The notes: generated by a model not told the origin, from the sequence alone. Positions 7,157 through 22,964 are shown, counted from the stretch's first letter. The stretch: 35,010 bases of DNA from a virus (IMGVR_UViG_3300045988_019110:1-35010); one strand, 5' to 3'. A program made the numbers and translations.

Positions 7157-9031
7157 ATGTCAAGCGGATGCGGTGACGTTTTAAGCCTGGCGGATTTACA
7201 GACCGCCAAGAAACACCAGATTTTCGAAGCTGAAGTCATCACTGGTAAATCCGGTGGTGTTGCAGGTGGTGCGGATATTGATTATGCAACTAACCAGGTT
7301 ACCGGGCAGACGCAGAAGACCCTCCCAGCTGTTCTTCGCGATGCCGGGTTTTCTCCTGTGTCGTGGGATTTCTCAACAGGCGGCACACTGACTGCCGCCG
7401 ACCGTGGCAAAGTTGTCTATGACCCCGTAAGTAAAACGTGGTATTCGTACGCAGGTACGTTGCCTGTTGTGGTTCCTGCATCCTTTAACCCGGTTGGTAA
7501 CGCGGACTGGAAGCCTCAGACTGACCCAAAATTGCGTACTGATTTGGCTAACACATCGAATGAAGCCTTGGGTGACGCATTAATTGGAACAAAGCAGCCT
7601 TTCACAAACTCATCTTCTCGCACTCAGCACGATAAAAACCTTGATAGAGTTAGTATTCTTGATTTTTTAGGGGCAAAAGGTGATGGAGTTACTGACTGCA
7701 CGGCAGCAATACAGGCCGCAGCCAATTATTCAAAAGCCTCCGGTAAGGCGATATATTTCCCGGCTGGAAACTATCTGATTAAAAACTCAATTAGCATTCC
7801 AGTTGGCGATCATTACAGTAAGAACGGTGTTGTTTTTATCGGTGATGGGAAAGGTTCTACGCGTATTACCAAGGATACTGTTGGAACCATCAACGCAACA
7901 TATAACGCTATCTTCTTGGTTGATGAGGGTTACAACTTCACGCTCAAAGGAATCTTGTTATATGACCAGACAGATGAATCTTTCGGCGTAGTTTTCACTA
8001 GCTGGTTTAGCGGATTCTATGCAGATGATTTCTATACTTTCGTAACCCATACCGGGATTTTGTGCGTTGGCGACTTTTTTATAAACAGCATTACGAATGG
8101 GATGCTTGATGGGGGACAAAATGGTTTCTATATGGCTAAATCAGGCACCACAAACCAATTTGACGGTCTATTTGCCGCAGGGCAATCCGGATACGGCTTC
8201 CAGTTAACTGGTGGATACTCCCGGGTCGGTGCGCTTGCGTGTGACAGCTGTAAAGGCACTCCGTACCATTTCAAAGGATTCATCGGCTCTGTCGGCAGCC
8301 TCGGCGCAGAAAATCCAGATGATTATCGTCAGGATGGTATCGTTAAATTGTCTGTGGCATCCCAGGTAGTAATCGACAAAGTATATACCGTTGCCATTCA
8401 CCTGAAAGACACCGCTTCATTTATATCTCTTGCTGGTGACTGTACTCTTACGCTTAACGAGCTGATTATTTCTGGCGGGCAGTCTACCGGGTACTTATAC
8501 GACGTTATCGCCAACTCGTACTTGACGCTGGGCGTAAAGATGCCGGATGGCTTTACTTTGAAGGGTAACAGGTCAGAGGGCGTTGTTTTTACCGGGCGAT
8601 TTGGGGACGATGTTCGACATTTCAAAAACAGTAACATGGACGTATCATGGCTTGGCCGTTATGACCTTTATGGTAAATCATACTCAGCTGCATTTCCTAA
8701 GGCTATCCACTTAAATAGTTATGGTCAGCCACGCAGGGCCGGTGCTGACGGTTCTGTTAACAATGACTATGCAGTTAGACCTAATCGTGGTGACATATTT
8801 CTGGAGAATAACCCAGCAGTTAATCCGTCTGCTGGTTACATAATTCTTAACCCTGGCTCAGGGTCTTTGATGGATGCAACATATGCGAGCATTCCTATCC
8901 GTATAGGTGGAACGACAGCACAGAGACCAGTAAAACCGCCACAGACCACAATGTATTTCGATATGACACTTGGGAAGCCAGTCTGGTATTACGGAACTGG
9001 CTGGGTTGATGCTACTGGAGCTACGGTATAA
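7157..9031 (+). CDS. tailspike protein with pectate-lyase-like right-handed beta-helix (polysaccharide depolymerase candidate)
   Basis: 624 aa; N-terminal virion-anchor-like region; FLGAKGDGVTDCTAAIQAAANYS motif typical of pectate-lyase-superfamily depolymerases; RBS aagagga upstream. Confidence 0.7.
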   Translation: MSSGCGDVLSLADLQTAKKHQIFEAEVITGKSGGVAGGADIDYATNQVTGQTQKTLPAVLRDAGFSPVSWDFSTGGTLTAADRGKVVYDPVSKTWYSYAGTLPVVVPASFNPVGNADWKPQTDPKLRTDLANTSNEALGDALIGTKQPFTNSSSRTQHDKNLDRVSILDFLGAKGDGVTDCTAAIQAAANYSKASGKAIYFPAGNYLIKNSISIPVGDHYSKNGVVFIGDGKGSTRITKDTVGTINATYNAIFLVDEGYNFTLKGILLYDQTDESFGVVFTSWFSGFYADDFYTFVTHTGILCVGDFFINSITNGMLDGGQNGFYMAKSGTTNQFDGLFAAGQSGYGFQLTGGYSRVGALACDSCKGTPYHFKGFIGSVGSLGAENPDDYRQDGIVKLSVASQVVIDKVYTVAIHLKDTASFISLAGDCTLTLNELIISGGQSTGYLYDVIANSYLTLGVKMPDGFTLKGNRSEGVVFTGRFGDDVRHFKNSNMDVSWLGRYDLYGKSYSAAFPKAIHLNSYGQPRRAGADGSVNNDYAVRPNRGDIFLENNPAVNPSAGYIILNPGSGSLMDATYASIPIRIGGTTAQRPVKPPQTTMYFDMTLGKPVWYYGTGWVDATGATV

Positions 9032-9036
9032 TGTAA

Positions 9037-9056
9037 GGCCCCTCACGGGGCCTTTT
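9037..9056 (+). terminator. rho-independent terminator between convergent tail and replication modules
   Basis: GGCCCC-tcac-GGGGCC hairpin followed by TTTT, directly after the tailspike stop. Confidence 0.5.
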
Positions 9057-9058
9057 CT

Positions 9059-9196
9059 CTACTCTTCTGATAACTTCTCCAGTACAAACGCCAGTTGCGC
9101 ATTAGCGGCGTCTCTTTGCTGCCGTAGTCGTAGAACCTCCTCTTCGAGTTCCTTGATACGTTTTTGCAATGCCGGAATCGGGGCTGTGATGTTCAT
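9059..9196 (-). CDS. small coiled-coil protein (45 aa), last gene of leftward operon
   Basis: ATG overlaps the SNF2 helicase stop (ATGA coupling); heptad-like MNITAPIPALQKRIKELEEEVLRLRQQRD; not in ORF track (<60 aa). Confidence 0.3.
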   Translation of the reverse strand: MNITAPIPALQKRIKELEEEVLRLRQQRDAANAQLAFVLEKLSEE

Positions 9197-10617
9197 TTCT
9201 TACTCCTACGTTTCATATACTCAAGGAGGATATCCTGCACCTGTTTTTTCTCGTCGGTGCGTGAAGTGACAACAGAATCTAACGTATCTTTAGCAATAAT
9301 CTTGTAGATAAAAACGGGGCGATTGTGCCCAGATTGCTTTTGTCGTGTTGGACCTATGCGCTCTATAACCTGCAAATAGTGCTCAAGGTTCCATCCCTGA
9401 CTGAAAAAAGCCATATGATGGCCGCCGTCTTGTAGCGATATACCATGCCCGGCTGACGCAGGATGCACGCATAATATTTCGATTTCACCGCGGTTCCACG
9501 CTTCCATCTGCTTATTACCCTTCGCACCTTTGGCAAACGCCTGGGCCTGCGGGAATCGCTTAAGGATGCGCTCCAGTTCGTGCTTAAACTGATAGGCCAC
9601 CAGTAACGGCGCTCCCTGTAACTCCTCGACAATGGACTCCAGAGCATCCAGTTTCGTGTCGTGTACTTTCTCCCAGTCTTTCGTTGCTTCTCCGTCTGGC
9701 CCTGACACATACACGGCACCAGATGCAATCTGCAAACACTTCGACGTCTTCGCTGCCGCGTTAGCCGCTTCAACTTCCCCGCTTTCCAGTTCTGCGAATA
9801 ATTTCTCCTCCATATCGATGTACGCCTGACGTGCTTTCTTAGGCAGGTCGATTTCAACCGGCACGATAATAGGCGCCTCGCAACCGAACCACTCGGCGGC
9901 GTCAATCGTGAGACTAACGTCCTTCATCTTCTGGTGGATTTCAGTATCCGCACCCGGGCGCGCATGATATTCACGCGCCATCGCCGACTTACCTTTCTGT
10001 ACCGAGTTAAACCAGCGGTCTGTGAATGCCGTGTACGATGAACCGAGGCGCTCGCCCGCGTCGATAAACCAGTTCTGACCCCACAGGTCTTTGAGGCCGT
10101 TGGGTGATGGTGTGCCTGTCAGGTTAATGAACCGCTTAACTTTACCAAATGCCACTTTGCTAAGCGCCTTTGCCCGCTTGCTTCCACCAGAACGGCTGCG
10201 GAATGACTTAAGCTTCGTGCTTTCATCGGCAACGATAACGGTAAAAGGCCAGTCATCTTTGCCGTAGTAGTCAATCAGCCATTCAATAACTTCGTAGTTT
10301 GTGCACACCACGTTAGCGTCAGACTCCAGCGCCGCGATGCGGCGCTTCTCTGAACCGGTCGCATCAACGACACGAAGACAAGGAAATTGCCATTTCTCTT
10401 GTTCTGCTGGCCATGTGCCAGACGCAACACGCAACGGGGCGAGAATTAACACGCGGTCGTCATCATTAAGTTGGCCGTTGCGGAACAGTCTGTTTAGAAC
10501 CCACATTGTCGCGGAACTTTTGCCCGCGCCCATCGAAGCCCAAATATTACAGCGCGGATGTCGCAGCATGAACGAAGTCATGAGCTTCTGGTACTCGCGC
10601 CTTTGAAACTTAGACAT
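9193..10617 (-). CDS. SNF2/DEAD-like superfamily 2 helicase
   Basis: Walker A-like ASMGAGKSS and DExx-box VIVADESTK; start re-set to ATG at 10617 (GAGG Shine-Dalgarno), since track N-terminal extension overlaps the upstream gene. Confidence 0.7.
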   Translation of the reverse strand: MSKFQRREYQKLMTSFMLRHPRCNIWASMGAGKSSATMWVLNRLFRNGQLNDDDRVLILAPLRVASGTWPAEQEKWQFPCLRVVDATGSEKRRIAALESDANVVCTNYEVIEWLIDYYGKDDWPFTVIVADESTKLKSFRSRSGGSKRAKALSKVAFGKVKRFINLTGTPSPNGLKDLWGQNWFIDAGERLGSSYTAFTDRWFNSVQKGKSAMAREYHARPGADTEIHQKMKDVSLTIDAAEWFGCEAPIIVPVEIDLPKKARQAYIDMEEKLFAELESGEVEAANAAAKTSKCLQIASGAVYVSGPDGEATKDWEKVHDTKLDALESIVEELQGAPLLVAYQFKHELERILKRFPQAQAFAKGAKGNKQMEAWNRGEIEILCVHPASAGHGISLQDGGHHMAFFSQGWNLEHYLQVIERIGPTRQKQSGHNRPVFIYKIIAKDTLDSVVTSRTDEKKQVQDILLEYMKRRSKK

Positions 10618-11293
10618 GATTGGCCTCGTAAACTGCTTTTGCGAAACCTCGTGGGGTGAGGCTGCGGATTGTCTTTGTTCTGGCGCTCTTTCCGCCGAGT
10701 TTAGCCCAACCAGGGTTATCCCCGCTATCAGCGGCAACTACAGCAACGTCGGGCATAACAAACCCATTGCCTACCCATAGGCACGTCTTTTTAACATAGG
10801 CATCCCGCGCTGGGATAACATCCGGAAACATTGGATGCGTGTCGTCTTCCGGTAGATAGCCGCCGTATTCGTGCGGGTTGAACACATAATCAGGCTTACG
10901 CCATAAAGATGAAAGAACACTAACCGGGTTCTCAATCATATAGGGTACGTTATACTTTTTAGCCAGACGTGCCGCCACTTTGCATGTAATCACGGCCTCT
11001 ACCTGAAACGTCGGGTTATTCTTGCGCTTAGCTTCGAAATGGCGCGACCCACTAACGGCTAAATCCGTGCATGGGGGGAACGAAAAAATAATATCTGGCG
11101 CAACCTCGAAGTCGAATTTATTATCAATCCACGCGTTTATATAGTGGATGTTCTCGTGTTCAACCCTCGCGCCCAATCGTGCGTAGTCTCCGTGGTCCGC
11201 GCCATCATAGTTGAAACAATAGCAAGTATGGCCTGCTTCTGCCCACGGCCGGGCCATAAGGCCCGAACCGTCAAACAATGACCAGACAATCAT
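10610..11293 (-). CDS. compact DNA cytosine-C5 methyltransferase-like protein
   Basis: 227 aa with motif I-like LFDGSGL, motif IV-like FPPCT (catalytic Pro-Cys), motif VI-like IENPV and GNGFV near C-terminus; ATG overlaps upstream stop. Confidence 0.5.
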   Translation of the reverse strand: MIVWSLFDGSGLMARPWAEAGHTCYCFNYDGADHGDYARLGARVEHENIHYINAWIDNKFDFEVAPDIIFSFPPCTDLAVSGSRHFEAKRKNNPTFQVEAVITCKVAARLAKKYNVPYMIENPVSVLSSLWRKPDYVFNPHEYGGYLPEDDTHPMFPDVIPARDAYVKKTCLWVGNGFVMPDVAVVAADSGDNPGWAKLGGKSARTKTIRSLTPRGFAKAVYEANHV

Positions 11294-11481
11294 TTAGCCA
11301 CCAGAACTAACTCTTTACGCCCGAACGCCGTAACGTTACCGGTTACATCTTCGATAACCAGTTTACCGTTCGACTCGACGTACACCGTATCAACGGCAAC
11401 AGGACGACGGGTCTTAACGTTGAAAATCATGTCGCCAGGTACGATGTCACGTGCTGGTTTACGGTCATATTCGTATTTCAT
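11290..11481 (-). CDS. hypothetical protein
   Basis: 63-aa ORF with AGGA RBS; translationally coupled to downstream gene. Confidence 0.4.
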   Translation of the reverse strand: MKYEYDRKPARDIVPGDMIFNVKTRRPVAVDTVYVESNGKLVIEDVTGNVTAFGRKELVLVAK

Positions 11482-11520
11482 TTCTCAATTCCTTATAGTT
11501 AAGGCCCCGAAGGGCCTGTA

Positions 11521-11775
11521 TTAGTTAGATAATTCGGCTTGAACTTGCTTAATAAGTTCTCTAGCCGTTGTGAAGTCTACAGACAGACACTTAGCGACGT
11601 CTTCGGTCAGCACTTTGCAGCCAACTGACCCGAAACCGAGAATACGGTTTACCTCAGAAACCTTCATGGACCATGAGTAATTAGCCGACGCGCCAGTGTA
11701 TTTACCGATTCGAACAGATGAATCGATTGAACCCATAATCATGGTGTTTACTGACAGTTGAAGTTCGATAGCCAT
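11521..11775 (-). CDS. hypothetical protein, first gene downstream of leftward promoter P1
   Basis: 84-aa ORF with aagga RBS, immediately downstream of the TTGACA-17-TATAGT promoter. Confidence 0.45.
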   Translation of the reverse strand: MAIELQLSVNTMIMGSIDSSVRIGKYTGASANYSWSMKVSEVNRILGFGSVGCKVLTEDVAKCLSVDFTTARELIKQVQAELSN

Positions 11776-11777
11776 TT

Positions 11778-12095
11778 TTATAATTCCTTATATTGTTGGG
11801 GTATGTGCTTACTATAATAGCTCGCTATTAGGGTGTCAACCTGTTTAACCGAACCAACGACAAAAACATTCGCGCCACGTTTTCGGAATCTTTCATGTTC
11901 ACGTAACTGGTGCGGGTCTGGCTTCGTGTTTTCGTCTTTCTTCACCTCGACGAACCAGACGATGCCGCCAGGGAGAATTACCAGCAGGTCGGGAGCGCCG
12001 GAACGTCCTTCGTAAGACAGCTTACGAACGAGGCCCCCCAGGGCCTCGAATCGCTCTTTTGCGTATTTCTGTATTTTGCCCTCAGGCGTACTCAT
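11778..12095 (-). CDS. VRR-NUC domain nuclease
   Basis: 105 aa; PD-(D/E)XK-type motif GAPDLLVILPGGIVWFVEVKK typical of VRR-NUC. Confidence 0.6.
   Translation of the reverse strand: MSTPEGKIQKYAKERFEALGGLVRKLSYEGRSGAPDLLVILPGGIVWFVEVKKDENTKPDPHQLREHERFRKRGANVFVVGSVKQVDTLIASYYSKHIPQQYKEL
11811..11839 (-). promoter_or_regulatory. sigma70-type promoter P1 (TTGACA-17-TATAGT) with palindrome in spacer
   Basis: On - strand: TTGACA (11839-11834), 17-nt spacer containing AATAGCgaGCTATT, TATAGT (11816-11811); overlaps the 3' end of the VRR-NUC ORF. Confidence 0.5.
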
Positions 12096-12297
12096 CTATA
12101 CACCCCTCGCGTTTCGTATGTTCAATACCGCAGCGCGGACAGATTCGGCGGTCTTCTTCATAGAACCAGTAGATTTTCATTCCAGCACCCATAGATAAAT
12201 TGCGATGAACATGCTCAATATGGCAACCATCATGCCGTATTGCCCCTCGTGACAGTAGACACCGGCGGCGAATCCCGCCAGTACCGCGATAATCAGT

Positions 12298-15200
12298 TTA
12301 CTTGGCATAACGTTTTAACTCCTGACCTTCTGCTACAAGAGGAAACCCCTCGGCCCATTCCGGTAATTCACACATCAACCGCTCGAGTTCAGCGACATTG
12401 TATTCCGGCGCATCTGGAGTTTCGCACACCAGTTCATCGTGTACCGAGAGTACGATAGGATACCCACCACGCTCAACGTTAATCATCGCATAGGCAAGTA
12501 AATCACGGCACAGCGCCTGAACAATGTTTTCGCAGGCCTTGCCGCCGTGTGTGTACAGGGTAGTCCATTGGCGGGTTAACTGGTTTTCGCCTTGATACTT
12601 GATTCGCACATTCGTGTTTACCCGTCCGTCTTCATCTGTTTCCTTTGTCACACTAACCCCGATTCCCGGATAGGAAAGGATACGACCTGACGGCAACTCC
12701 ATACACAACCACCAACCCGGAACCTTCCTGCCGGATGAATCAAATTCTACAGTGCGCCATATGCGGATAGCCCTTTCCCCGTTCCTGCGCAAGTGCGCTC
12801 CCGCCCAAAATTCACGACCAGGGTTACGAACAGCGGCTAAAATTCCGTCTTTAAGGTCGCGCCAGAAAGCTACTGTTTCCGGGTGTGACTCGCGCCACAT
12901 ACGCTTGATCGCGTCGCATGTGCGCCACACTTTCTTGTCCAGAATATACGACGGTCGGTCGTCCTTTTCGCCCGGATGCGGCGGTCGCTTTGCTTCCTGG
13001 ATACGCGCCCACTCATAACCGCGTGCGGTAGCTGCCCATATGTGGTCAGGGAATGTACCGTCCATTGTTTTAGCCATCTCAATAAGGTCGAGGCCTAAGT
13101 TTTTGGCGAACGTAACGAACGCTCCGACACCCCCCTCATAGCCTAGGCCAAGCTCGCAGTTATGCGCCACAAGAAAGCCAGAGTCTGAGGCTATAAGAAA
13201 ACGGTTGCCGTCTTCCACATCAATCAGGTCGTACACCGGCTCGCAGTAGGTTAATTTCCCGCTCAAGTTCAGCAATGCGGGCAACGGCTGCATCGTACTT
13301 TCGTTGAAGCTCGGGTATTTGCCGTCTGTTTCGGCAGTTTTCAGAACGGCTGACAAACCGAATGTTTCCAGGTTCGTAGTTACCGTCTGTGTCGATTCTA
13401 TCCATTTCGAGGTTCGGGTCATCCCAGCCTTCCAGAGTTTGAACATATCTAAGAAAAGACCTTTTATCAGTCCTCCACTGGTCGAATACCGTGATGCCTC
13501 TTGCCCCGTAGTTTTTATAACCCTTATCCCTGGGGCTTGTTGTTCGCGTGATCGCCGCTGACAGCCGGTTGAGTAATCGCGTTCTGTGCGCATCATCCGG
13601 CATTGCGTCTTCGTAGCAGAAATACTGTTTACGATATTTTTTTGTTGCTTCAAGGGCGCAGCGGTTGCATTGAGTGGTTTTACCAGCTCTGACGTTGTCA
13701 TAATAGACCCGCCCCGGCATCTCTCCGCAATCACATTGGACGAGTAGTTGTCTTTGGCCTTGTCGTTTTGGTAACTCGCGCAGGATAACCAAGCGTCCAT
13801 ACCTCTCTCCAGGGCGAGGCCCATCATATATCTGTTTGAAGCGAGTTGCTTTGCCTGCTTCCAGGAATGCGCCAAGATTTTGTGGTCTTCGGTCATTAGC
13901 ACCCCGTCCACATTTATTACCGGTTTCCACCCCATAAGGTGCGCGCCTTTTGTATTCACCCATTTTTCACCGCTCCATACTTTATCTGTTGATGTAACCG
14001 CCATAATATCCTTAAATCCGCCATTGGTCAAAACTTGGGTATGGCGGTGAAGGCAGGCCTTACCAATCTGGCGTAAATCTTTACGTTCCTTCTTAATGTC
14101 GTCTGGGTCCATTCCGAACATCTTGCCCGCGGTTACACAATAAATGTCCAGTCCGGCACGGAACGTATCGAGCGCGGTTTCTTCACCTGCCAGCCACGCA
14201 AGTCCGCGGCCTTCAACGTTAGAGTAATCGGCAACAACAAACTTATGTCCTGCTTCCGGTATGATGCAGCTGCGAACCGTCGATGCCGTTAGCTTGGCTA
14301 CGTCAAATCGGCGGTGAGCACGACCCTTAAGTAACGCTGAAATGCCTTTATCCAGTTCATCATCATGATAGTACCCGCGGGCCAAGTTCTGCGGCTGGAA
14401 GCCTTTACCTGCCCATCGCAGAGTACGTTTTGCCCCACCGTACTGCAGGCAACCGCGACGGCGGTCGTCCGACGAGCGGCCTAACAGCAATGGGTTGTAT
14501 TTCGTGGACGCTGTTGACGCGGCACCGAGGCGCATTTCGATAATCGTACGGGCATCGTCCGGTAAATCATCGTCCGCCAACAGGTCATTCAGCGTCGACT
14601 TCTGTGCGTTGTGGATGCGGTGTGCGGGGGCAAGTTCACGCAGAATAGGTAGAAAGTCTTTACCAGTAAGTGAGCCGCCGTATTTGCGTTGGGCTTCTTC
14701 CTGTAACTGCGCTTTGTGTTTCTCCACAGCTTCAATCGCGGCTTCCGCCAGTGCAACGTCAACCTTAAACCCACGGTCATTGATTAACTGGTCCAGCTCC
14801 AGTACACGGTCCTCGAACTCTGAGTTACCCCACCGCGGCAGTTTATGGAAGACTTCACGCATCGCAGTGATGTCGCTCACGGCGTACTTGATGAACAGTG
14901 CCCACTCGTCCGGGTGTGTTTCGGCGGTGTAACGGCGGATTTTGTAGTTCTTCGGCGTCGGTTTAGAAAAACGCTTAATCAGCGCCTTGCCGCGTTTATC
15001 TTTCGCGTTGTCCGCGGATACACCCAGCACTTCACATAGCGCATCAAGCGAACCTGGTAGCGCGTGACGAAACGCCCAAATCATCGTATCAATGGTGTTG
15101 CTTACAGGAATGTCAAAGCCCCAGCAGTGCTTCATGATGAGCCTGTCGAACATTGAGCCGTTGTGCCACACCATCTTGATGCGGCTGTTTGGCTTAACCA

Positions 15201-15396
15201 GGCGGCGCAAGGCGCGATGCAAATCCCCCGGCATGTCGCTGCCGTCGGTGCAGTCCCATACCTGCACAGGCTCGTCGTCAAAAGCATAGGTACAGATAAG
15301 CACTTCTGTAGTCGGATGCTCGGCGTAAGCGTAGGAGCCGACTTTCTTTAAATTGGCTTCGGAGAATGTTTCAAAGTCTAAGAACAGGTAACTCAT
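12298..15396 (-). CDS. DNA polymerase, family A, with 3'-5' exonuclease domain; intein-containing
   Basis: 1032-aa ORF; N-terminal exo motif LFLDFETFS; motif A VVADYSNVEGRGLAW; motif B split as RQIGKA / CELGLGYEGG by a ~299-aa insertion with intein hallmarks. Confidence 0.85.
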   Translation of the reverse strand: MSYLFLDFETFSEANLKKVGSYAYAEHPTTEVLICTYAFDDEPVQVWDCTDGSDMPGDLHRALRRLVKPNSRIKMVWHNGSMFDRLIMKHCWGFDIPVSNTIDTMIWAFRHALPGSLDALCEVLGVSADNAKDKRGKALIKRFSKPTPKNYKIRRYTAETHPDEWALFIKYAVSDITAMREVFHKLPRWGNSEFEDRVLELDQLINDRGFKVDVALAEAAIEAVEKHKAQLQEEAQRKYGGSLTGKDFLPILRELAPAHRIHNAQKSTLNDLLADDDLPDDARTIIEMRLGAASTASTKYNPLLLGRSSDDRRRGCLQYGGAKRTLRWAGKGFQPQNLARGYYHDDELDKGISALLKGRAHRRFDVAKLTASTVRSCIIPEAGHKFVVADYSNVEGRGLAWLAGEETALDTFRAGLDIYCVTAGKMFGMDPDDIKKERKDLRQIGKACLHRHTQVLTNGGFKDIMAVTSTDKVWSGEKWVNTKGAHLMGWKPVINVDGVLMTEDHKILAHSWKQAKQLASNRYMMGLALERGMDAWLSCASYQNDKAKDNYSSNVIAERCRGGSIMTTSELVKPLNATAAPLKQQKNIVNSISATKTQCRMMRTERDYSTGCQRRSREQQAPGIRVIKTTGQEASRYSTSGGLIKGLFLDMFKLWKAGMTRTSKWIESTQTVTTNLETFGLSAVLKTAETDGKYPSFNESTMQPLPALLNLSGKLTYCEPVYDLIDVEDGNRFLIASDSGFLVAHNCELGLGYEGGVGAFVTFAKNLGLDLIEMAKTMDGTFPDHIWAATARGYEWARIQEAKRPPHPGEKDDRPSYILDKKVWRTCDAIKRMWRESHPETVAFWRDLKDGILAAVRNPGREFWAGAHLRRNGERAIRIWRTVEFDSSGRKVPGWWLCMELPSGRILSYPGIGVSVTKETDEDGRVNTNVRIKYQGENQLTRQWTTLYTHGGKACENIVQALCRDLLAYAMINVERGGYPIVLSVHDELVCETPDAPEYNVAELERLMCELPEWAEGFPLVAEGQELKRYAK
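13159..14055 (-). other. intein inserted in PolA motif B
   Basis: Pol-frame residues 448-746: N-terminal CLHRHTQVLT (block A), LMTEDHKIL (block B), C-terminal VYDLIDVEDGNRFLIA...FLVAHN followed by +1 Cys (blocks F/G). Confidence 0.65.
13220..13963 (-). CDS. HNH endonuclease-like ORF nested inside the intein in an alternate reading frame
   Basis: 247-aa ORF, different frame from the polymerase; ATG with GGAG 9 nt upstream; motifs GRLVIL...CDCGEM...CNRC and YKNYGARGITVFDQW...DRIDTDGNYEPGNIRFVSRSEN. Confidence 0.5.
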   Translation of the reverse strand: MGEYKRRAPYGVETGNKCGRGANDRRPQNLGAFLEAGKATRFKQIYDGPRPGERYGRLVILRELPKRQGQRQLLVQCDCGEMPGRVYYDNVRAGKTTQCNRCALEATKKYRKQYFCYEDAMPDDAHRTRLLNRLSAAITRTTSPRDKGYKNYGARGITVFDQWRTDKRSFLRYVQTLEGWDDPNLEMDRIDTDGNYEPGNIRFVSRSENCRNRRQIPELQRKYDAAVARIAELEREINLLRAGVRPD

Positions 15397-15412
15397 TATT
15401 TTCGACCCTTAG

Positions 15413-15434
15413 TAAAAAGGCCCAATGAAGGGCC
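15413..15434 (-). terminator. rho-independent terminator (- strand) between SSB-like gene and polymerase gene
   Basis: On - strand AGGCCC-ttcatt-GGGCC hairpin followed by TTTTT. Confidence 0.45.
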
Positions 15435-15455
15435 TTAGTTAAATTGATTCAGTTA

Positions 15456-16091
15456 TCAACGGCGACGACGTTCGCGGCGAGGTGCTTCATCTTCTTCTTC
15501 GTCTTCGTCTTCCAGGTCGTCGGTGCTTGCTACTACACTGGAACCCCCGAAGCGTTTACCTTCGCCCGCATACTTGATGCCGAGGATGGTAGCGCACAAG
15601 TTTTTCCATTCTTTGTGCCACCATAGCTCTACAGATACGTTTGCTACACACCCGCTGTATACCTGCTCGCCTTCTACTTCCTGCCCGTCGATGTTGAAAT
15701 CAGGCTCGGTTTGTTTTTCGCCTTTAGCTGAGGTCATAATTACAGGTTGGCGGTTGTTAGTAGCGCGGAAATACAGACCTTCTTCAAAATCTTCAATCGG
15801 ATTGTCACGCATTGCCAGGTCACGGACGCAGCATTTGTCTGCGTGGTGGTCTACGCCGTAGTTGGCCTTCATCCATTTTTCAGCAGCAGCTGTCCCGATT
15901 GCCTCTGTTACAACTTCCAGAGCGGTGTCGTAAAGCGCGTCGATTTGAGGGTGGTCAGGCTGCATAAGAACCGTAACCTGATATTTGCCCTTAATCAGTT
16001 TACCTGTTTTCTTGTCCTCAGAGTCGGCAGCACGTTCAAATACGTTAACCCATGCAGTGTTTACTTTACGCAGATTCAGTTTCAGTCCCAC
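15456..16091 (-). CDS. putative ssDNA-binding protein (DUF2815-like) with acidic C-terminal region
   Basis: 211 aa, GTG start with GAGGG RBS; acidic tail DDLEDEDEEEDE; sits between Cas4-like exonuclease and PolA, a position typical of phage SSB in this module type. Confidence 0.4.
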   Translation of the reverse strand: MGLKLNLRKVNTAWVNVFERAADSEDKKTGKLIKGKYQVTVLMQPDHPQIDALYDTALEVVTEAIGTAAAEKWMKANYGVDHHADKCCVRDLAMRDNPIEDFEEGLYFRATNNRQPVIMTSAKGEKQTEPDFNIDGQEVEGEQVYSGCVANVSVELWWHKEWKNLCATILGIKYAGEGKRFGGSSVVASTDDLEDEDEEEDEAPRRERRRR

Positions 16092-16154
16092 AGTTCAGCC
16101 CTCATTAAGTTTAGATTTTAAGTTTACTCCGGGAACCGCCCGGCCAGTGATTTA

Positions 16155-16183
16155 ACTATAATAGCTCGCTATTCGGTAGTCAA
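16155..16183 (-). promoter_or_regulatory. sigma70-type promoter P2 (TTGACT-17-TATAGT) with palindrome in spacer
   Basis: On - strand: TTGACT, 17-nt spacer containing GAATAGcgagCTATT, TATAGT; near-identical to P1. Confidence 0.5.
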
Positions 16184-16187
16184 CACT

Positions 16188-17444
16188 TTATTCTAAATCT
16201 TCTTCACTAACCTGATTCCACTCAGGACGTTTGTCGTCTGCCGTTGCTACGCATGGCGCGCCCGGCTTACGGGTAATAAAGTCTTTCAGTTCTTCTTCCG
16301 GTATGACTTTAATAGCTTCGGTCGGTGTCATCAGCACTTCTTTAGTCAGCTTATCGCCGTAGAGTTCTGTTACTTTCTCCGTGTCTTTCCACGCACGGTT
16401 GCCCATTTTACCTTCAACCAGCTTGTACCCAGGAACTTTCTTACCAGAATGCAACGCGGCGGCCATAGCTTTCTCAACCTTGTCGATGTGCTGGCGCAAC
16501 AACGGCAACTTCTCATACTCAGCGACGAGTTGCTCCGGCGTAAGTTCAAGCGCGAAGTCGTCTTCAAGTTCTTCCGCCAGTACAGAATTAACGGTTCTTG
16601 TACGCGCGGCGCACTGTTCTGAGAACCGGCACCACTGACAACCATCGACAGACGGCTTGAAGTCCGACGCTTTCAGGTTCTTCTTGCCGCGGGAATAAGC
16701 ATCAAGGGCCAACAGCGCCCGTTTCTGCGCGAACTTAGCGAACAGTTCCAGACCTTCGACCGAGATGTCCCACTCCGACGCGCCGCCAGCGTACGGCTGG
16801 AAGATTACCAGACGAACAACTTTGATGTTATAACGTCTCTTGAGTCGGCGATAAACACCGAGAGCGTAAAGCATAAGCTGCTTGTTTTCTTTCGCTTCAA
16901 CACGATGCCGTCCTGTTTTCAGGTCGCCGATAATGAGCATGTGCTCGTCGGTGTTAGCCTGTTCCTGAACGGCAACAAGGTCAGCAGTCCCGAACGTCTC
17001 GACGCCTTCGTAACCCGGATGCAATACCTCAGTAAGATTGACGCGCATCTCGAGCTTGGAATAAGTCGCGACATCGATAATCGGTTTGCAGTAGTCGGTG
17101 TACTTTCGCACCTGCTCAATCATGTCGGCCGTAATCAGTACCGCGCCTTTCATCGGGCTGATTAGCGCCTTAATCTGGCCTTTACCCTCATCCAGCACGT
17201 AAGCACCGACTTCACGCTCTAACGGCAACGCGGTTCCTCGAATATAGGCGTTGAGATGGACCTCAGCTATGGTGTGGCACGCGGTCCCCGTAACAGCAGC
17301 TTTACCTGACGTGTTAGGAATATCTTTTTCACAGGCCAGTGATGCACTGCACGTCAGCCACTTTTTAGCGCCTGACGGCGACAGTAAGGCGTGCACATCA
17401 TTATTGCCGCCACGTTCCTTTAAAATCATACCCTGCTCTCCCAC
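16188..17444 (-). CDS. PD-(D/E)XK Cas4/RecB-like exonuclease (DUF2800-like)
   Basis: 418 aa; N-terminal LSPSGAKKWLTC motif and C-terminal Cys cluster CQWCRFSEQC typical of Cas4-like iron-sulfur nucleases. Confidence 0.6.
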   Translation of the reverse strand: MGEQGMILKERGGNNDVHALLSPSGAKKWLTCSASLACEKDIPNTSGKAAVTGTACHTIAEVHLNAYIRGTALPLEREVGAYVLDEGKGQIKALISPMKGAVLITADMIEQVRKYTDYCKPIIDVATYSKLEMRVNLTEVLHPGYEGVETFGTADLVAVQEQANTDEHMLIIGDLKTGRHRVEAKENKQLMLYALGVYRRLKRRYNIKVVRLVIFQPYAGGASEWDISVEGLELFAKFAQKRALLALDAYSRGKKNLKASDFKPSVDGCQWCRFSEQCAARTRTVNSVLAEELEDDFALELTPEQLVAEYEKLPLLRQHIDKVEKAMAAALHSGKKVPGYKLVEGKMGNRAWKDTEKVTELYGDKLTKEVLMTPTEAIKVIPEEELKDFITRKPGAPCVATADDKRPEWNQVSEEDLE

Positions 17445-17698
17445 TGGTCAATTAAATGTCGTGTCTTATGGTCACAATGCATAGCCCAGCCATACATAGA
17501 CTCGAAGACATAAAAGTCAGGTTTGGCGAAAGTCGTGCGCTTAATCTGTGACACGTGACGGCCTATATCTTTAGGCCGCGGTACTTTGCCTAAGTACGCC
17601 ATCTCTTCCATCAGGTGCGCACCGGACGGCGCACGTAACAGCCATAGCGCCTCCGTGTTATCCCGCCTGTCAACGGCGCGGTAGAGTTGGTAAATCAT
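17426..17698 (-). CDS. hypothetical protein
   Basis: 90-aa ORF overlapping the downstream gene start by 19 nt. Confidence 0.35.
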   Translation of the reverse strand: MIYQLYRAVDRRDNTEALWLLRAPSGAHLMEEMAYLGKVPRPKDIGRHVSQIKRTTFAKPDFYVFESMYGWAMHCDHKTRHLIDQWESRV

Positions 17699-17740
17699 AT
17701 TTCCGACCCTCAGTTAAAGCGGCCCGAAGGCCGCCTATAG

Positions 17741-18223
17741 TTATTCTTCTTCGAAATACTTGTTCTTGATTGCCGTCAGGCGTTCCAGGTACTCGGCCAG
17801 GTCTTCGTCTTTAATCGCGGTAATCTTCATCTTCTTACCGGTGAACTCTTCCAGCAGTTCGTCGGAATCATCACACGCGGCATCGCTAGGACCTTCGTTA
17901 ATCGCATCGTCGATAGCCTGAATCTGGCCACGAAGAGACTTGTAATCGACTTCTTCTTTCTCTTCTTCCGGCTCTGGCGTCGGTTCCTCTACTTTAGCTT
18001 TACGCGGCTTGCGTTTTGGCTTCTCTTCTTCCGCCGGTTTGGTGTCAACGATGTCTTCACCTTCGACCGGGATTTCTTTTGTTGTCTCGATTGTTGCGGT
18101 TTGTTCAACGACCCCGGCGACTAATGCAGTTTTTGCAACATTAACTTGTTTTGCACTGTTCGCAGCAATCAGTTCATGTGCAACTACGAAACGTTCCAGT
18201 AATTTTAAAAATTGTTCTAACAT
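17741..18223 (-). CDS. acidic, low-complexity early protein of unknown function
   Basis: 160 aa, Glu/Asp-rich with a short basic KPKRKPRKAK patch; first gene downstream of promoter P3. Confidence 0.45.
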   Translation of the reverse strand: MLEQFLKLLERFVVAHELIAANSAKQVNVAKTALVAGVVEQTATIETTKEIPVEGEDIVDTKPAEEEKPKRKPRKAKVEEPTPEPEEEKEEVDYKSLRGQIQAIDDAINEGPSDAACDDSDELLEEFTGKKMKITAIKDEDLAEYLERLTAIKNKYFEEE

Positions 18224-18254
18224 TTGTTTCTCTCCTCTCGTTTGGTATGGGCTA

Positions 18255-18284
18255 ACTATAATAGCTAACTATTCAGGTTGTCAA
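18255..18284 (-). promoter_or_regulatory. sigma70-type promoter P3 (TTGACA-18-TATAGT) with palindrome in spacer
   Basis: On - strand: TTGACA, spacer containing GAATAGttagCTATT, TATAGT; divergent from the HTH gene at 18349. Confidence 0.5.
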
Positions 18285-18348
18285 TGGGCTTTCCTAAAAT
18301 AATTAATATGGTACTATTCACATATCAACTGACTAAGGAGTAATTGAC

Positions 18349-18564
18349 ATGCAACCATCTGAACTAGGCATCCGTGTAGAGCAACGCCGCAAAGAACTCG
18401 GCATCTCTCAACGCCGTCTGGCGGTCCTGGCTGGCGTTTCCCAGGGCGCGATTAATCAGCTGGCGCTCGGTGTAACTCAGGACGTACGCCCGGCAACACT
18501 GTTCAAGCTGGCGGAAGTGCTGGAAGTAGACGCCAAGTGGCTGGCGTTCGGTGAAGGGGCTTAA
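18349..18564 (+). CDS. XRE-family helix-turn-helix transcriptional regulator (Cro/CI-like)
   Basis: 71 aa; classic HTH GISQRRLAVLAGVSQGAINQL; AGGAG RBS; lone + strand gene between - strand operons. Confidence 0.7.
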   Translation: MQPSELGIRVEQRRKELGISQRRLAVLAGVSQGAINQLALGVTQDVRPATLFKLAEVLEVDAKWLAFGEGA

Positions 18565-18578
18565 GCCCCTTTCTTTTT
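18554..18578 (+). terminator. rho-independent terminator after HTH gene
   Basis: Palindromic GGGGCTTAAGCCCC hairpin overlapping the stop codon, followed by TTTCTTTTT. Confidence 0.5.
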
Positions 18579-18580
18579 AC

Positions 18581-20821
18581 CTATTCTAAATCCTCCTCTG
18601 TCACCACCAGCATTTCATTCGGCTCATATATCGTCTTTGGTCTTAATCTGTCACCCATCTTTTCCGGTATCCGGTAGGTGCCCGGTATAACTTCACCGTT
18701 AACATCGCACCCTAACATCAACTCACCGTCTTTCAGCATCTTCTCGAGATGATGGTTGGTTATGGCGTGGTCGCCCGAATTCGCCACTATCTGCCGTTGT
18801 GTAAAACCTCGTCCGGTGTCGTCTGACTGTTGCAGGTCCTCCAGCGCGGCAAGTATTGATTCCTTACGCCCTTCATCCTTTCCACGTTTTACAGCGTTCT
18901 TTACGTTTTCTTTACCTTCTTTCGTCAGCCCTTCTTCCCGCTCTTTCTCCTCGTCAGTTTTGAACGGCTCGAAACCCCACGGCATCAGCACAAGCGCCTT
19001 GTGCGGCTCAGGCAGGTCCAGGTTTACGATTGTGCCGTATTCCTCTGTGCTACCCAGGAACTCAACCGCACGGTACTCTTTCGGCGGTGGTGCTTCACGG
19101 AACTGTACCGACTCCAGCACCATGCCAACCGTCTTCTGTTGAGGCCCGTGCTTAAATTTAGAGTGGTATACGTTTATCTGACGGTCGGTAGCGCGTTCAA
19201 TTGTCAGTTCCACGTCAACGCCCGCATACAGCGCGCCGCTGCCACGGGCTTTCTTTCCGCCCTTCGGTGTGTGGTGAACAACACCTACCGCGGCTTTAGT
19301 CGCATCACGCACTTCTTTCAGGATGGCGATAACTTTACCCATACCGATTGCCGTTGATGAACTGTTCTCGTCAAACTTATCAATCGTCAGGGCCAGGGTC
19401 TGGTTGAGGGTGTCAAACGCGACCATGCCGATAGGTTCATCGCCAGCGGTTTCACGCATTAACTTAATCAGGTTTTTCAGTTTTCCGACTTCGCCCATGT
19501 CGATGACATGTACATAATCTTTACCTTCCTCTCCGTATTTAGCCGCGAGTGCATCAATACGTGTGCGGGTAGCCGCGCCACCCTCACCGTCGATATAGAA
19601 ATGGTGACAGCGCTGGGTATCCGCCCCTGCGAAGCGATAGCCAGCGGCGCTAAGGTACATCACCCCCAGCGTATAGAATGATTTGTACGTGCCAGATTCT
19701 CCGACGATATCCCAGATACAATCCGACGGCATGTACCCTTCTACGACGAAATCAGCCTTTACCGGTTCTGGTAATTCGTCCTCCTCGAAGTCCTCGTCGT
19801 CTTCCAGGTCGTCCAGGCTGCATGAAACGGATTCACGCGCACCCCATCCGATAGCCTCAGCCACTTCACTAAACGGCAGCCCGGTCGCGTCGCACGCATA
19901 CTTCCACACCTCTTTCGGTGACATGCCTTCGGTTGCCGTAATGTCGGTGTCGTGAATCATGGTTACGTTCGGTGCTTCGTAGCCCTCTCGCGGGAAACAC
20001 AGCAGGAAGTCGTCCGGCCGCGGTGTCGGGTCGCTGTAGTTTTCCGCATGTTCTGGTGTGGCGGGCATCTTAAGGCCGCGAGGTGTCATGACACCGCCGT
20101 ACTCAAAAGCCAGTGCCTCGAACGCGTCTGTAAACGCGGTGCGCAGTTCTTCCGGTATCTGGTAATCCGATGCGCTGCTCACCTCGTAATCCGGGATGCC
20201 TTCCAGTAACTCATCCGGGTCAATCAGGTCGTTGCGACGCGACCAGATAACCTGAGAGCCAACCGGCGGCAGGTACATCGGTTGGGACAGAGTAAACCCG
20301 CTGCGGTCAGCGCCCATGCCTTTGAAGAAGTGCTCCAGCAATCCATGACGAACACGGATGATGTCGCCACCCTCAACAGGACTGGCCAGCGGCATGACGA
20401 CACGAAAGCGCGGAGACTCATCGGTATGGGATGCCGTGGTATATAGGCACATCGCCTGGCGGCTGCGCTTAACCAGGCGCACAGCTTCCTGATACTCTTC
20501 CGGCGTTGCACTGTCGAAGTCCAGATACGCCAGCGACGATTTGCTTACAGACGCATCACAGCGATAGAAGAAGCCTTTACGCGCTTGCTTAAAGTCGCCG
20601 GTTTCCAGGTCTTTTACGGTGCTGTGAGTAGAGTCGCACGCGGCGGTGATATATCCCGGCGCGGTCTTCGGGTTAATCCCGTCTCGGACAGAATCGAGCG
20701 GCTGGATTAACTCTTTCAGGTCGTCCAGTGTTGCCGTGTGTGTAGTTCTGACGTTTATATCCTTTTTCTCTGCTCGCGCGTTGCGGCGTGACCACGAGTA
20801 GGATAAAATTACATCGGACAT
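18581..20821 (-). CDS. primase-helicase (AEP-type primase-polymerase N-terminal domain fused to RecA-like helicase)
   Basis: 746 aa; AEP-like motifs AYLDFD and TTASHTDESPRF; Walker A GESGTYKS and VVHHTPKGG-type helicase motif. Confidence 0.7.
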   Translation of the reverse strand: MSDVILSYSWSRRNARAEKKDINVRTTHTATLDDLKELIQPLDSVRDGINPKTAPGYITAACDSTHSTVKDLETGDFKQARKGFFYRCDASVSKSSLAYLDFDSATPEEYQEAVRLVKRSRQAMCLYTTASHTDESPRFRVVMPLASPVEGGDIIRVRHGLLEHFFKGMGADRSGFTLSQPMYLPPVGSQVIWSRRNDLIDPDELLEGIPDYEVSSASDYQIPEELRTAFTDAFEALAFEYGGVMTPRGLKMPATPEHAENYSDPTPRPDDFLLCFPREGYEAPNVTMIHDTDITATEGMSPKEVWKYACDATGLPFSEVAEAIGWGARESVSCSLDDLEDDEDFEEDELPEPVKADFVVEGYMPSDCIWDIVGESGTYKSFYTLGVMYLSAAGYRFAGADTQRCHHFYIDGEGGAATRTRIDALAAKYGEEGKDYVHVIDMGEVGKLKNLIKLMRETAGDEPIGMVAFDTLNQTLALTIDKFDENSSSTAIGMGKVIAILKEVRDATKAAVGVVHHTPKGGKKARGSGALYAGVDVELTIERATDRQINVYHSKFKHGPQQKTVGMVLESVQFREAPPPKEYRAVEFLGSTEEYGTIVNLDLPEPHKALVLMPWGFEPFKTDEEKEREEGLTKEGKENVKNAVKRGKDEGRKESILAALEDLQQSDDTGRGFTQRQIVANSGDHAITNHHLEKMLKDGELMLGCDVNGEVIPGTYRIPEKMGDRLRPKTIYEPNEMLVVTEEDLE

Positions 20822-20878
20822 ATTATAATTCCTTCAGCAAGTAATTTGGCCTCGGCGCTCTAACGTCGGGGCTTTCTT

Positions 20879-21112
20879 TTATTCCAGGTCTTCTAAAGTA
20901 GCGGTCATTCCGCGAACTTCAGCGACAGCACTATATTTCCCGCCGACATTTTTCACGACACCGGATTTAACCAACACCTTCAATGACCCTTCAATGATGG
21001 CGGAACTATAGTACTTAAAATAACTGCGGCGCAAGTCGATAACACTGCACGACCCTTTTTTACGTGTTAATGAAACGACCGCCGTAAATACGCGTGACTG
21101 GAACTCGGTCAT
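20879..21112 (-). CDS. hypothetical protein
   Basis: 77-aa ORF translationally coupled to the upstream HTH gene; C-terminus LEDLE. Confidence 0.4.
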   Translation of the reverse strand: MTEFQSRVFTAVVSLTRKKGSCSVIDLRRSYFKYYSSAIIEGSLKVLVKSGVVKNVGGKYSAVAEVRGMTATLEDLE

Positions 21113-21279
21113 TTCACGTTCTCCTTAATCCACGCTTCCACTTTCTCCGGGTCAAACGTACCTGGCTGCCGGCGGCCCATAATGCGGGTACAGCAATCAG
21201 GGAACTTCCCGCTCTTTAACCAGTTATTCAGCGTGCGACGAGTAACCCCGATGCGCTCTGCTACTTCATTCTGCGTCAT
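21109..21279 (-). CDS. AlpA-like helix-turn-helix DNA-binding protein
   Basis: Start re-set to ATG at 21279 with GAGGG RBS; MTQNEVAERIGVTRRTLNNWLKSGKFP HTH; candidate TTGATT-17-TATACT promoter upstream. Confidence 0.5.
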   Translation of the reverse strand: MTQNEVAERIGVTRRTLNNWLKSGKFPDCCTRIMGRRQPGTFDPEKVEAWIKENVK

Positions 21280-21620
21280 TCTCAAACCCTCATTATCAGT
21301 TAACAAAATCGAGTATACATTGCGAATAATGGGAAATCAAACATAATCGCACCTATTGACATTATGAAAATCTTCGTTTAAGGTGCTTCTATATCTTAGT
21401 TACTTTGATTCTTGTTCACCTTGTAAACCCCGCCGAAAACGAGCGCCCAACGCGAAGTGTTAGGCGGCAGTTTACTGAACATAAGAATTATCGTAACTTT
21501 CCTTCCTTAATATCTCCGGTTGCCCTGGGCAAGCTCTATTCTCATCGGCAGCATATCTCTTAAGTAACTGATTTTCTTAATGTACCGTAGATTCACAACC
21601 GTAAAAATGTAACCCTTACC

Positions 21621-21647
21621 GGGCAGGCTTAAGGCCTGCCCTTTAGT
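21621..21647 (+). terminator. terminator-like hairpin inside the 470-bp early intergenic region
   Basis: GGGCAGGC-ttaag-GCCTGCCC 8-bp stem followed by TTTAGTT on the + strand, with no + strand ORF upstream. Confidence 0.4.
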
Positions 21648-21713
21648 TACCAAGTAATAAGAATAAAGGCACAACCCTACCTGAAGAATCACAACGGCAA
21701 TGTAACTATTCTC

Positions 21714-21742
21714 TTGCACACCCCAACATAATAGGATACTAT
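21714..21742 (+). promoter_or_regulatory. sigma70-type promoter (TTGCAC-17-TACTAT) for rightward small-gene operon
   Basis: TTGCAC 21714-21719, 17-nt spacer accccaacataatagga, TACTAT 21737-21742; same element family as 23326, 34832(-) and window start. Confidence 0.45.
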
Positions 21743-21776
21743 TCACTTATCGAAACGAGACATAAGGAATTCAGAA

Positions 21777-21995
21777 ATGAACAAAGCGACCGCAAGCGTA
21801 GTTTCCGCAATCAAAGAAGTTTACGGCATCGATATTTCAGAGCGCGTAATTATCGGGAACAAACGCAACTTCTTTACGTTCGACACCGACGGAATGGATG
21901 AAAATGATTTTAACAACGTACAACGTTTCGCTAACGATAAAGGGCTTCGTAACGAGCCTGCGGGTTACAAGAAATTCGCTATCTACTTTAAATAA
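21777..21995 (+). CDS. hypothetical protein
   Basis: 72-aa ORF with aagga RBS, first gene after promoter. Confidence 0.45.
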   Translation: MNKATASVVSAIKEVYGIDISERVIIGNKRNFFTFDTDGMDENDFNNVQRFANDKGLRNEPAGYKKFAIYFK

Positions 21996-22004
21996 GACAG
22001 AGGA

Positions 22005-22199
22005 GTGAGGGTTATGTTTAAGAAGGGTCAGTTGGTTAGGGATAAAGTTAGCGGTGATTTATTCACTGTAATAGAGTCGAAGTTAATGTGGTTCGGTTTT
22101 GTAGAGGTTAATAGCGTAGCTGGGTTTGGTAAAGGGTTACTCCGTAAATGTGATTTAGAACTCATCGGCAACAATTTTAAATTCAAAGGGGCGAAGTGA
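22005..22199 (+). CDS. hypothetical protein
   Basis: 64-aa ORF with gaggag RBS. Confidence 0.45.
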   Translation: MRVMFKKGQLVRDKVSGDLFTVIESKLMWFGFVEVNSVAGFGKGLLRKCDLELIGNNFKFKGAK

Positions 22200-22438
22200 T
22201 GCAAATAATAATTACAGATAACACAGTTACCTACGAAAAAGGTGGCGACAATACTCTGGAGAGCATAGGCGTAAATATAGGTGACGTTTTTGATGTGCTT
22301 GGTACTGTATCGGGCGGCTGGTGGATTAAGGTTGGACGCAACAAAGTTCCGGTAACTAAGGCCGAAGCGGAAATATACACAACGGCATCGAATCATGATG
22401 CTCGTGCGGACGACTCTGAGGGAGGTTGCCGTAAATGA
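22196..22438 (+). CDS. hypothetical protein
   Basis: 80-aa ORF, start overlaps upstream stop. Confidence 0.45.
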   Translation: MMQIIITDNTVTYEKGGDNTLESIGVNIGDVFDVLGTVSGGWWIKVGRNKVPVTKAEAEIYTTASNHDARADDSEGGCRK

Positions 22439-22626
22439 GAATTCGTATAACTGATATTGATTATGTGGACCCGCGCGATGGTGACAATTTGCCGCTTAGT
22501 TACTGTGGTGTTGCCCTCGGTGATGAGTTCGAGGTTATCCATGCAGGGACTGACATGTTCATTATTGAGTATGTAGCGGGGTATATGGTCGTGCACTCCT
22601 GTGAATGCGAAGTTCTGGAGGACTAA
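22435..22626 (+). CDS. hypothetical protein
   Basis: 63-aa ORF, start overlaps upstream stop. Confidence 0.45.
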   Translation: MRIRITDIDYVDPRDGDNLPLSYCGVALGDEFEVIHAGTDMFIIEYVAGYMVVHSCECEVLED

Positions 22627-22629
22627 GTT

Positions 22630-22824: not shown

Positions 22825-22964
22825 GAGAAGCATTCGAACGGTGGGCTGTCGTTGAGGGCCTACCTGTTAACAAGGGTTCGAAGAAAGAGTACCTGAACGT
22901 TAAGACGCGTCTCGCGTGGCGGGCGTGGAAAGCTGGTGTGTTGTTTATCGCGAATCAGAGGTGA
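22821..22964 (+). CDS. hypothetical small protein (47 aa)
   Basis: ATG overlaps upstream stop (ATGA); fills the gap to the next gene; not in ORF track (<60 aa). Confidence 0.3.
   Translation: MREAFERWAVVEGLPVNKGSKKEYLNVKTRLAWRAWKAGVLFIANQR

Follow-up and report, generated by a model that had tools for sequence, protein, structure and literature searches.

Which protein, if any, reads a palindrome that recurs inside the promoters of a virulent phage, and what might it do to the genes behind them? The question is raised by IMGVR_UViG_3300045988_019110:1-35010, a viral DNA stretch of 35,010 nucleotides (nt), called the window below in its full length, in which three near-identical leftward promoter candidates, P1 to P3, share an inverted repeat between their -35 and -10 hexamers. 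Judged from its sequence, the window is a stretch of a virulent Kagunavirus-type siphophage (Guernseyvirinae). A 12-kb stretch of it matched 468 phage records, the top ones being Kagunavirus isolates and Shigella phage phiSD1, at ~86-90% identity and with equal gene order. The core of the shared repeat is a 14-base-pair (bp) dyad-symmetric palindrome, AATAG-N4-CTATT, and the system it belongs to is most likely a Cro-type repressor-operator regulon that is cI-less and dispersed through a virulent genome.

The palindrome and the promoters that carry it

An unbiased count of all inverted repeats with 4-6 bp arms and gaps of 0-10 bp singled out AATAG-N4-CTATT as the only 5-bp or 6-bp palindrome above the reporting threshold in the window. 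Six exact copies are present, against 0.03 expected from base composition; allowing a single mismatch raises the number to 10, where shuffled sequences give 0.73. No other 5-N-5 palindrome is as over-represented as this element in the window, nor in Jerseyvirus SETP7, which has 5 copies reading TAATAG-N4-CTATTA, or in the full Kagunavirus LM08P1 genome, which has 8. Among 38 Kagunavirus-type loci totaling 696 kb, exact copies number 171. In Cornellvirus SP-031, the same inverted-repeat count returned zero copies.

Three of the exact copies lie in the leftward promoter candidates, which belong to a first class of sites:

P1, 11811-11839, minus strand: class 1; -35 TTGACA at 11834-11839, 17-nt spacer, operator AATAGCGAGCTATT at 11816-11829, -10 TATAGT at 11811-11816, 11/12 consensus; heads 11521-11775, 11290-11481, a C5-methylase-like open reading frame (ORF) at 10610-11293 and an SNF2 helicase gene at 9193-10737
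P2, 16155-16183, minus strand: class 1; -35 TTGACT at 16178-16183, 17-nt spacer, operator AATAGCGAGCTATT at 16160-16173, -10 TATAGT at 16155-16160, 10/12 consensus; heads the genes for an Enc34-type single-stranded DNA (ssDNA)-binding protein at 15456-16091 and DNA polymerase A at 12298-15396
P3, 18255-18284, minus strand: class 1; -35 TTGACA at 18279-18284, 18-nt spacer, operator AATAGTTAGCTATT at 18260-18273, -10 TATAGT at 18255-18260, 11/12 consensus; heads 17741-18223, 17426-17698 and a DUF2800/PD-(D/E)XK exonuclease gene at 16188-17444

The initial annotation had described TTGACA or TTGACT, a spacer of 17-18 nt and TATAGT at these three minus-strand places, and both its coordinates and its sequences proved exact. 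The inverted repeat that it saw in all three spacers is real, and is better put as the 14-bp palindrome, its final T doubling as the initial T of the -10. Hexamers and spacers (17, 17 and 18 bp) fit sigma70 promoters, for which TTGACA and TATAAT 17 +/- 1 bp apart, with A2 and T6 in the -10, are typical, and because the hexamers are near consensus, the class-1 promoters would need no activator. The three take ranks one, two and four among the promoter-like matches in 9000-24000, where the total of such matches (15 versus 14.0 expected) is not above chance. A 19-mer common to all three, AATAGnnAGCTATTATAGT / AATAGNNAGCTATTATAGT, occurs in 3 exact copies against 0.03 expected. The hairpin in the P2 leader shows no stability beyond that of shuffled sequence (z = +1.9), and no Rfam family matched within 9000-24000. 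P1 falls within the last codons of the minus-strand ORF 11778-12095. That location had been given correctly, and the VRR-NUC label attached to the ORF is weak (Pfam E 4.6e-4, below the gathering cut-off); the ORF matches the phrog_93 endonuclease family at 1.8e-33 and also a Holliday-junction-resolvase phrog.

The repeat had been reported for these three promoters only, an observation that was incomplete rather than wrong. The window-wide motif search that was proposed along with it adds exact palindromes at 21730, 23342 and 34803 and a one-mismatch copy at 18305 (the other one-mismatch copies are at 27017, 32719 and 34894), giving at least seven promoters in two registers. In class 1, TTGACA is followed by 5-6 nt and then by the palindrome whose last T starts TATAGT, so that the operator fills the spacer and touches the -10. 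In class 2, the promoter reads TTGCAY-17-TACTAT, and TACTAT is made of palindrome positions 8-13, so that the operator covers the -10. The class-2 sites are as follows:

PR1, 21714-21743, plus strand: -35 TTGCAC at 21714-21719, operator AATAGGATACTATT at 21730-21743, -10 TACTAT at 21737-21742; heads 21777-21995 and the small rightward genes that follow it
PR2, 23326-23355, plus strand: -35 TTGCAC at 23326-23331, operator AATAGGATACTATT at 23342-23355, -10 TACTAT at 23349-23354; heads 23386-23535 (phrog_4653) and downstream genes
PL4, 34803-34832, minus strand: -35 TTGCAT at 34827-34832, operator at 34803-34816 (minus strand AATAGGGTACTATT), -10 TACTAT at 34804-34809; heads 34497-34775, a counter-oriented ORF of 92 amino acids (aa) inside the structural module
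O/P_xre, 18305-18318, plus strand: imperfect operator AATATGGTACTATT with left half AATAT, the right half of which gives the -10 TACTAT at 18312-18317, 31 nt upstream of the start of a helix-turn-helix (HTH) gene

Each of the seven operators belongs to a -35/-10 pair with proper spacing and covers in it either the spacer/-10 junction or the -10. A start codon that has a ribosome-binding site follows 28-35 nt downstream in six cases and 63 nt downstream at P2. If transcription starts 7 nt after the -10, the operator is centered near -18.5 in class 1 and near -12.5 in class 2, and at both positions a bound protein would exclude RNA polymerase. An alternative -10 for class 2, TATAAT/CATAAT over the left half-site, was rejected: the conserved TTGCAY is just 10 bp away from it, and no second -35 would serve it. 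In the record of phage Jersey, the equivalents of P2 and PR2 are annotated as sigma70-like promoters.

Two further sets of promoter-like sites bear on how far the element reaches:

27017-27050, plus strand: possible weak operator; ACTAGTTGACTATT at 27017-27030, with one mismatch, over the -35 of a promoter-like TTGACT-17-TATATT, just after a terminator and upstream of late-region genes
21312-21384, both strands: promoter-like sites that diverge and lack the palindrome; leftward TTGATT-17-TATACT (21312-21340, toward an HTH_17 gene) and rightward TTGACA-17-TAAGGT

The equivalent of the 27017 site in Jerseyvirus SETP7 (41001-41034) has its mismatch on the other half (AATAGTTGACTAGT), and the pair suggests a conserved low-affinity operator. 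The divergent sites are probably immediate-early promoters.

Two other features of this promoter family were observed. Several operator promoters share a block of leader and ribosome-binding site, AAACGAGAGGAGA (18226-18247 and 23362-23380 in the window; 32960-32985 and 37690-37710 in SETP7), and CATACCCCAAC follows P1 and also forms a class-2 promoter spacer, which suggests that promoter-leader cassettes have been duplicated and reshuffled. At 34885-34900, AACTATTCGAATAGTT is a perfect 16-bp palindrome in which the half-sites are everted (CTATT-CG-AATAG); it is kept in Kagunavirus LM08P1 and lies directly against the TTGACT of a promoter-like site (34899-34927) that points rightward.

Conservation among Kagunavirus, Jerseyvirus and Cornellvirus

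Orthologous promoters were aligned without conditioning on the motif, with 10-36 distinct sequences per alignment. The P2 alignment was left out of the conservation means, being lower throughout and appearing to include misaligned or paralogous sequences. Mean conservation across the rest is 0.99-1.00 for the half-sites, 0.80-0.95 for the central 4 bp and 0.78-1.00 for the 6 nt upstream; for the upstream spacer it is 0.78-0.94. P1 orthologues illustrate the pattern, with half-sites at 0.99, a center at 0.80 and nine different center tetramers, and the P3 half-sites are invariant in 36 unique orthologues. The G-to-T imperfection of P_xre (the AATAT half) is itself conserved in all Kagunavirus lineages. 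Sites are kept in lineages whose HTH_3 protein (discussed below) is only 78-82% identical, and Jerseyvirus keeps the corresponding sites despite diverged flanks. The base flanking the half-site is T in 14 of 14 Jerseyvirus cases; in Kagunavirus it is T in 128, G in 112 and another base in 16.

Invariant symmetric halves, a drifting center and two registers together argue for a dimeric DNA-binding protein rather than a mere duplicated promoter cassette. Thus, the earlier proposal that an operator sits in the core of strong sigma70-type promoters gains support from the dyad symmetry, the over-representation and the conservation at orthologous promoters; binding and repression at these sites we infer.

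In Cornellvirus, the P3 equivalent of SP-031 (10960-11010) reads TTGCAC-18-TATAGT with ATTAGTTTAGTATT at the operator position, which by its sequence is a two-mismatch, non-symmetric operator relic in the same register. The primase gene of SP-031 lies downstream of its HTH_3 gene on one strand. A scan of SP-031 and vB_SenTO17 for another repeated palindrome or motif covarying with the diverged HTH_3 protein found only terminators.

A Cro-like protein and its rivals

The protein that probably binds the palindrome is encoded next to two of its copies, the P3 operator and the operator of the gene's own promoter:

18349-18564, plus strand: 71-aa HTH_3 (XRE) protein; Pfam HTH_3 2.3e-12, recognition helix SQGAINQL

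Its best match in the PDB is phage 434 Cro, also 71 aa long, which aligns end to end (E 5.4e-7), followed by the 434 repressor (1.3e-5). The initial annotation had named this protein as a candidate binder, a choice strengthened by the full-length homology to 434 Cro and by the operator copy at its own promoter. Nearly all Kagunavirus variants keep the recognition helix SQGAINQL, the one exception reading SQSAINQL. Operators of phage 434 span 14 bp; their outer bases, of which the first is A, are conserved, their center varies and is not contacted, and the glutamine that opens the 434 recognition helix reads adenine 1. That glutamine is conserved in the 71-aa protein when it is aligned with 434 Cro.

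The resemblance to the 434 system therefore covers a regulator homologous to Cro and repressor over its full length, 14-bp dyad operators like OR1-3 and OL1-3 (the right and left operators) that have conserved outer bases from A and a variable central 4 bp and overlap the promoter core, and a regulator gene that adjoins and diverges from a regulated promoter. Unlike 434, the phage studied here lacks a cI partner, an integrase and tripartite OR/OL arrays; its operators are single and dispersed over at least seven promoters of a virulent genome. The half-site also differs (AATAG rather than ACAA), as do residues 2, 3, 5 and 6 of the recognition helix relative to 434 Cro.

Searches for independent lineages with a close HTH_3 homologue were negative; a large protein search gave only Kagunavirus-like relatives at 78% identity or more. 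A profile scan of IMG/VR similarly returned only Kagunavirus, Jerseyvirus and Cornellvirus types, together with unrelated 30-44% matches that lack the palindrome and one partial match of 28 residues. No prophage copy of the P3/HTH_3 region occurs across 5,426 complete Escherichia coli genomes, the sole match being a spacer of a clustered regularly interspaced short palindromic repeat (CRISPR) array. In that genome, NZ_AP025214.2, a CRISPR-annotated stretch is 100% identical to 35 bases at 18512-18546, within the 71-aa HTH gene.

The best-surviving alternative, which we regard as unlikely, is that an early protein made from an operator-free promoter binds the palindrome and switches the promoters, by repression or by positive action, in an early-to-middle step. 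Two proteins might do so:

21109-21279, minus strand: 56-aa HTH_17 early protein; behind the promoter-like, palindrome-free TTGATT-17-TATACT at 21312-21340
20879-21112, minus strand: gp77, 77 aa; flanked by the HTH_17 and primase genes

Kagunavirus and Jerseyvirus both have the operator, and their HTH_17 proteins share 88% identity, with the helix-turn-helix almost unchanged; a homologue search found HTH_17 essentially confined to these two genera. HTH gene 008 is among only four early-peaking genes of phage K1B4 (PMC12645636), its equation with the HTH_17 gene resting on functional label only. The predicted structure of gp77 is a winged helix of three helices and a beta-hairpin (predicted local distance difference test score, pLDDT, 80), for which a fold search gave only generic winged-helix matches, the top one, the N-terminal domain of T4 MotA, not being significant. 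HTH_17, gp77 and gp63 are all absent from the palindrome-less Cornellvirus-type phages, but for HTH_17 and gp77 this presence/absence argument draws on three lineages only. Within Kagunavirus, moreover, the HTH_17 helix varies non-conservatively (TRRTLNNW, TRQTINNW and, in EC3-1, STMTLNRW), yet EC3-1 keeps 8 exact operators. Small excisionase/HTH_17 proteins are usually monomeric binders of asymmetric or direct-repeat sites, and a site over the -10 cannot serve as a conventional activator site. A MerR-type spacer operator, which calls for a spacer of 19-20 bp and a MerR protein that dimerizes through a coiled-coil helix, was ruled out, the spacers being 17-18 bp, HTH_17 having only 56 aa and its MerR_1 match falling below the cut-off.

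It is improbable that the palindrome has no dedicated binder and merely marks either a promoter cassette that was duplicated or a variant promoter that RNA polymerase itself reads. The run common to P1-P3 extends over at least 19 contiguous bases and the leader AAACGAGAGGAGA recurs at several promoters, as expected from duplication, and two genome papers enter the motif simply under phage promoters or regulatory elements (PMC9825357, PMC8790156). Duplication would not, however, place the palindrome in two registers relative to the -35 and -10 with unrelated flanks, nor keep its symmetric halves invariant while center and spacer drift, both within and between genera. The label of a promoter for a phage polymerase is baseless, since complete relatives have no annotated RNA polymerase gene. 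A promoter for a phage-encoded RNA polymerase was accordingly rejected as a candidate; such a gene is annotated neither in phiSD1 (a partial stretch) nor in SETP7 or EC3-1, and the ORFs of the window that were examined included none.

We give still less credence to the palindrome being a docking site for a small early factor, HTH_17, gp77 or both, that acts on RNA polymerase inside the promoter core. If true, this would be a new, dyad-binding way of reprogramming the host polymerase at the middle promoters of a virulent siphophage.

Very improbable, too, is binding by a host transcription factor common to E. coli and Salmonella. Such a factor would account for an operator core that is identical in Kagunavirus (on E. 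coli) and Jerseyvirus (on Salmonella) when the HTH_3 recognition helix is different. Nevertheless, Cornellvirus phages also infect Salmonella and have no sites, the flank preference differs by genus and thus points to a phage-specific reader, and no enterobacterial factor known to us recognizes AATAG-N4-CTATT.

That the spacer element loads a Q/AlpA-type antiterminator is scarcely credible: the binding element in those systems likewise lies between -35 and -10, and terminator-like hairpins are over-represented in the region (26 versus 16.3 expected), but AlpA binds as a single molecule of more than 140 aa to an asymmetric 6-bp element with a -10-like pause element past the start (PMC9371919), whereas here the site is a dyad, half of its copies lie over the -10, the candidate proteins have 56-77 aa, P1-P3 are followed by no conserved -10-like pause element, and the small HTH proteins have no Q/AlpA family match.

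A proposed dispersed Cro circuit in a virulent phage

The gene order of the window is as follows:

up to ~9 kb, plus strand: tail genes
9.2-21.3 kb, leftward: replication/recombination block with SNF2 helicase, C5-methylase-like ORF, DNA polymerase A, Enc34-type ssDNA-binding protein, DUF2800/PD-(D/E)XK exonuclease and primase-helicase
after 21.3 kb, rightward: small genes, lysis genes and head genes

No lysogeny genes are present in the phage, and no second repressor or integrase is annotated in complete related genomes; tripartite OR/OL arrays were not encountered, operators being single apart from the P3/P_xre pair, whose centers are 45 bp apart. A separate observation concerns the DNA polymerase ORF (12298-15396), which encodes 1032 aa versus ~725 aa in relatives. 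The difference is an in-frame insertion of 299 aa (13159-14055, minus strand) that starts with cysteine (GKA|CLHRH) and ends with histidine-asparagine followed by cysteine (VAHN|CELGLGY). These ends are an intein signature, and the insertion matches the phrog_93 'endonuclease' family.

On balance, we lean toward a model in which dimer-bound operators lie in sigma70 promoters, the 71-aa protein is a Cro-like repressor, and its own gene is autoregulated. From P1-P3, as host sigma70 promoters, the leftward operons for DNA replication and recombination would be transcribed, and a dimeric phage protein on the 14-bp operators would block RNA polymerase. As the 71-aa protein builds up, the promoters for replication and accessory genes would be turned down. 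P_xre, with its conserved weaker operator, would be shut off last, in a form of negative autoregulation. The promoters at 21312-21384, which have no operator, and at 27022, which has a one-mismatch copy, might largely escape repression.

Several points weigh against this model or its choice of regulator. The -35 of P_xre is very weak in this phage (CTTTCC), and is TTGCAC in Jerseyvirus. The Jerseyvirus orthologue of the HTH_3 protein has 52% identity and the helix SQSLITHL, yet the operator core is unchanged. Cornellvirus-type phages have an HTH_3 homologue (41-43% identical) but zero palindromes, and since they lack HTH_17, gp77 and gp63, presence and absence across genera fit those proteins at least as well. 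An RNA sequencing study of phage K1B4, a Kagunavirus, found the DNA polymerase and methylases late-peaking and placed gene 004, labeled 'specific DNA binding', among the middle genes (PMC12645636), which is a poor fit to simple early shut-off, the gene numbers having been mapped to window genes by functional labels only. Finally, binding, transcription-start or reporter experiments on this phage group were not found in the literature. With respect to K1B4, phage reads peaked at only 8.9% (PMC12645636), and it may be that the infection did not run as one clean cycle, so that its time classes are weak evidence either way. No 5'-end data were found, and the K1B4 study, the sole RNA sequencing study, gives coarse time classes (PMC12645636).

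The element itself has been seen before. A PHIRE motif in Kagunavirus fBC-Eco01, tgAATAGTa-ccTATTat-T, was found in 7 copies, called a phage-specific promoter and assigned to a phage RNA polymerase (PMC9825357), and another was reported for the Jersey-like phage SGP-C as TAATAGTACCCTATTATGTT (PMC8790156). Both are the same element as the palindrome described here, given in those papers as a promoter consensus without the dyad, the registers or the link to a Cro-like protein. We found no literature that notes any of these three features.

Regulons in which a small regulator acts at many short genome-wide sites near promoters have precedents in the dispersed operators of phage P1 C1, the 'stoperators' of mycobacteriophage L5 gp71 and the conserved inverted repeats of phiC31. 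Those phages are temperate, their regulators maintain lysogeny, and the P1 and L5 sites are asymmetric. Unlike them, the phage studied here is without lysogeny genes and its site is symmetric.

Phages of the genera Kagunavirus and Jerseyvirus are frequent isolates and are advocated as agents of therapy and of food biocontrol; a study devoted to the timing of their gene expression was not found. For these phages, the analysis defines a testable regulon of at least seven promoters, one 14-bp operator and one favored 71-aa regulator, and corrects a published label under which the motif was a phage-polymerase promoter. If the model is true, the 71-aa protein supplied in trans should blunt infection, and the operator-promoter pairs would be compact, strong and repressible parts for engineering. 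It would also mean that a virulent phage lineage has kept a Cro-only circuit without cI, an outcome that would not be surprising.

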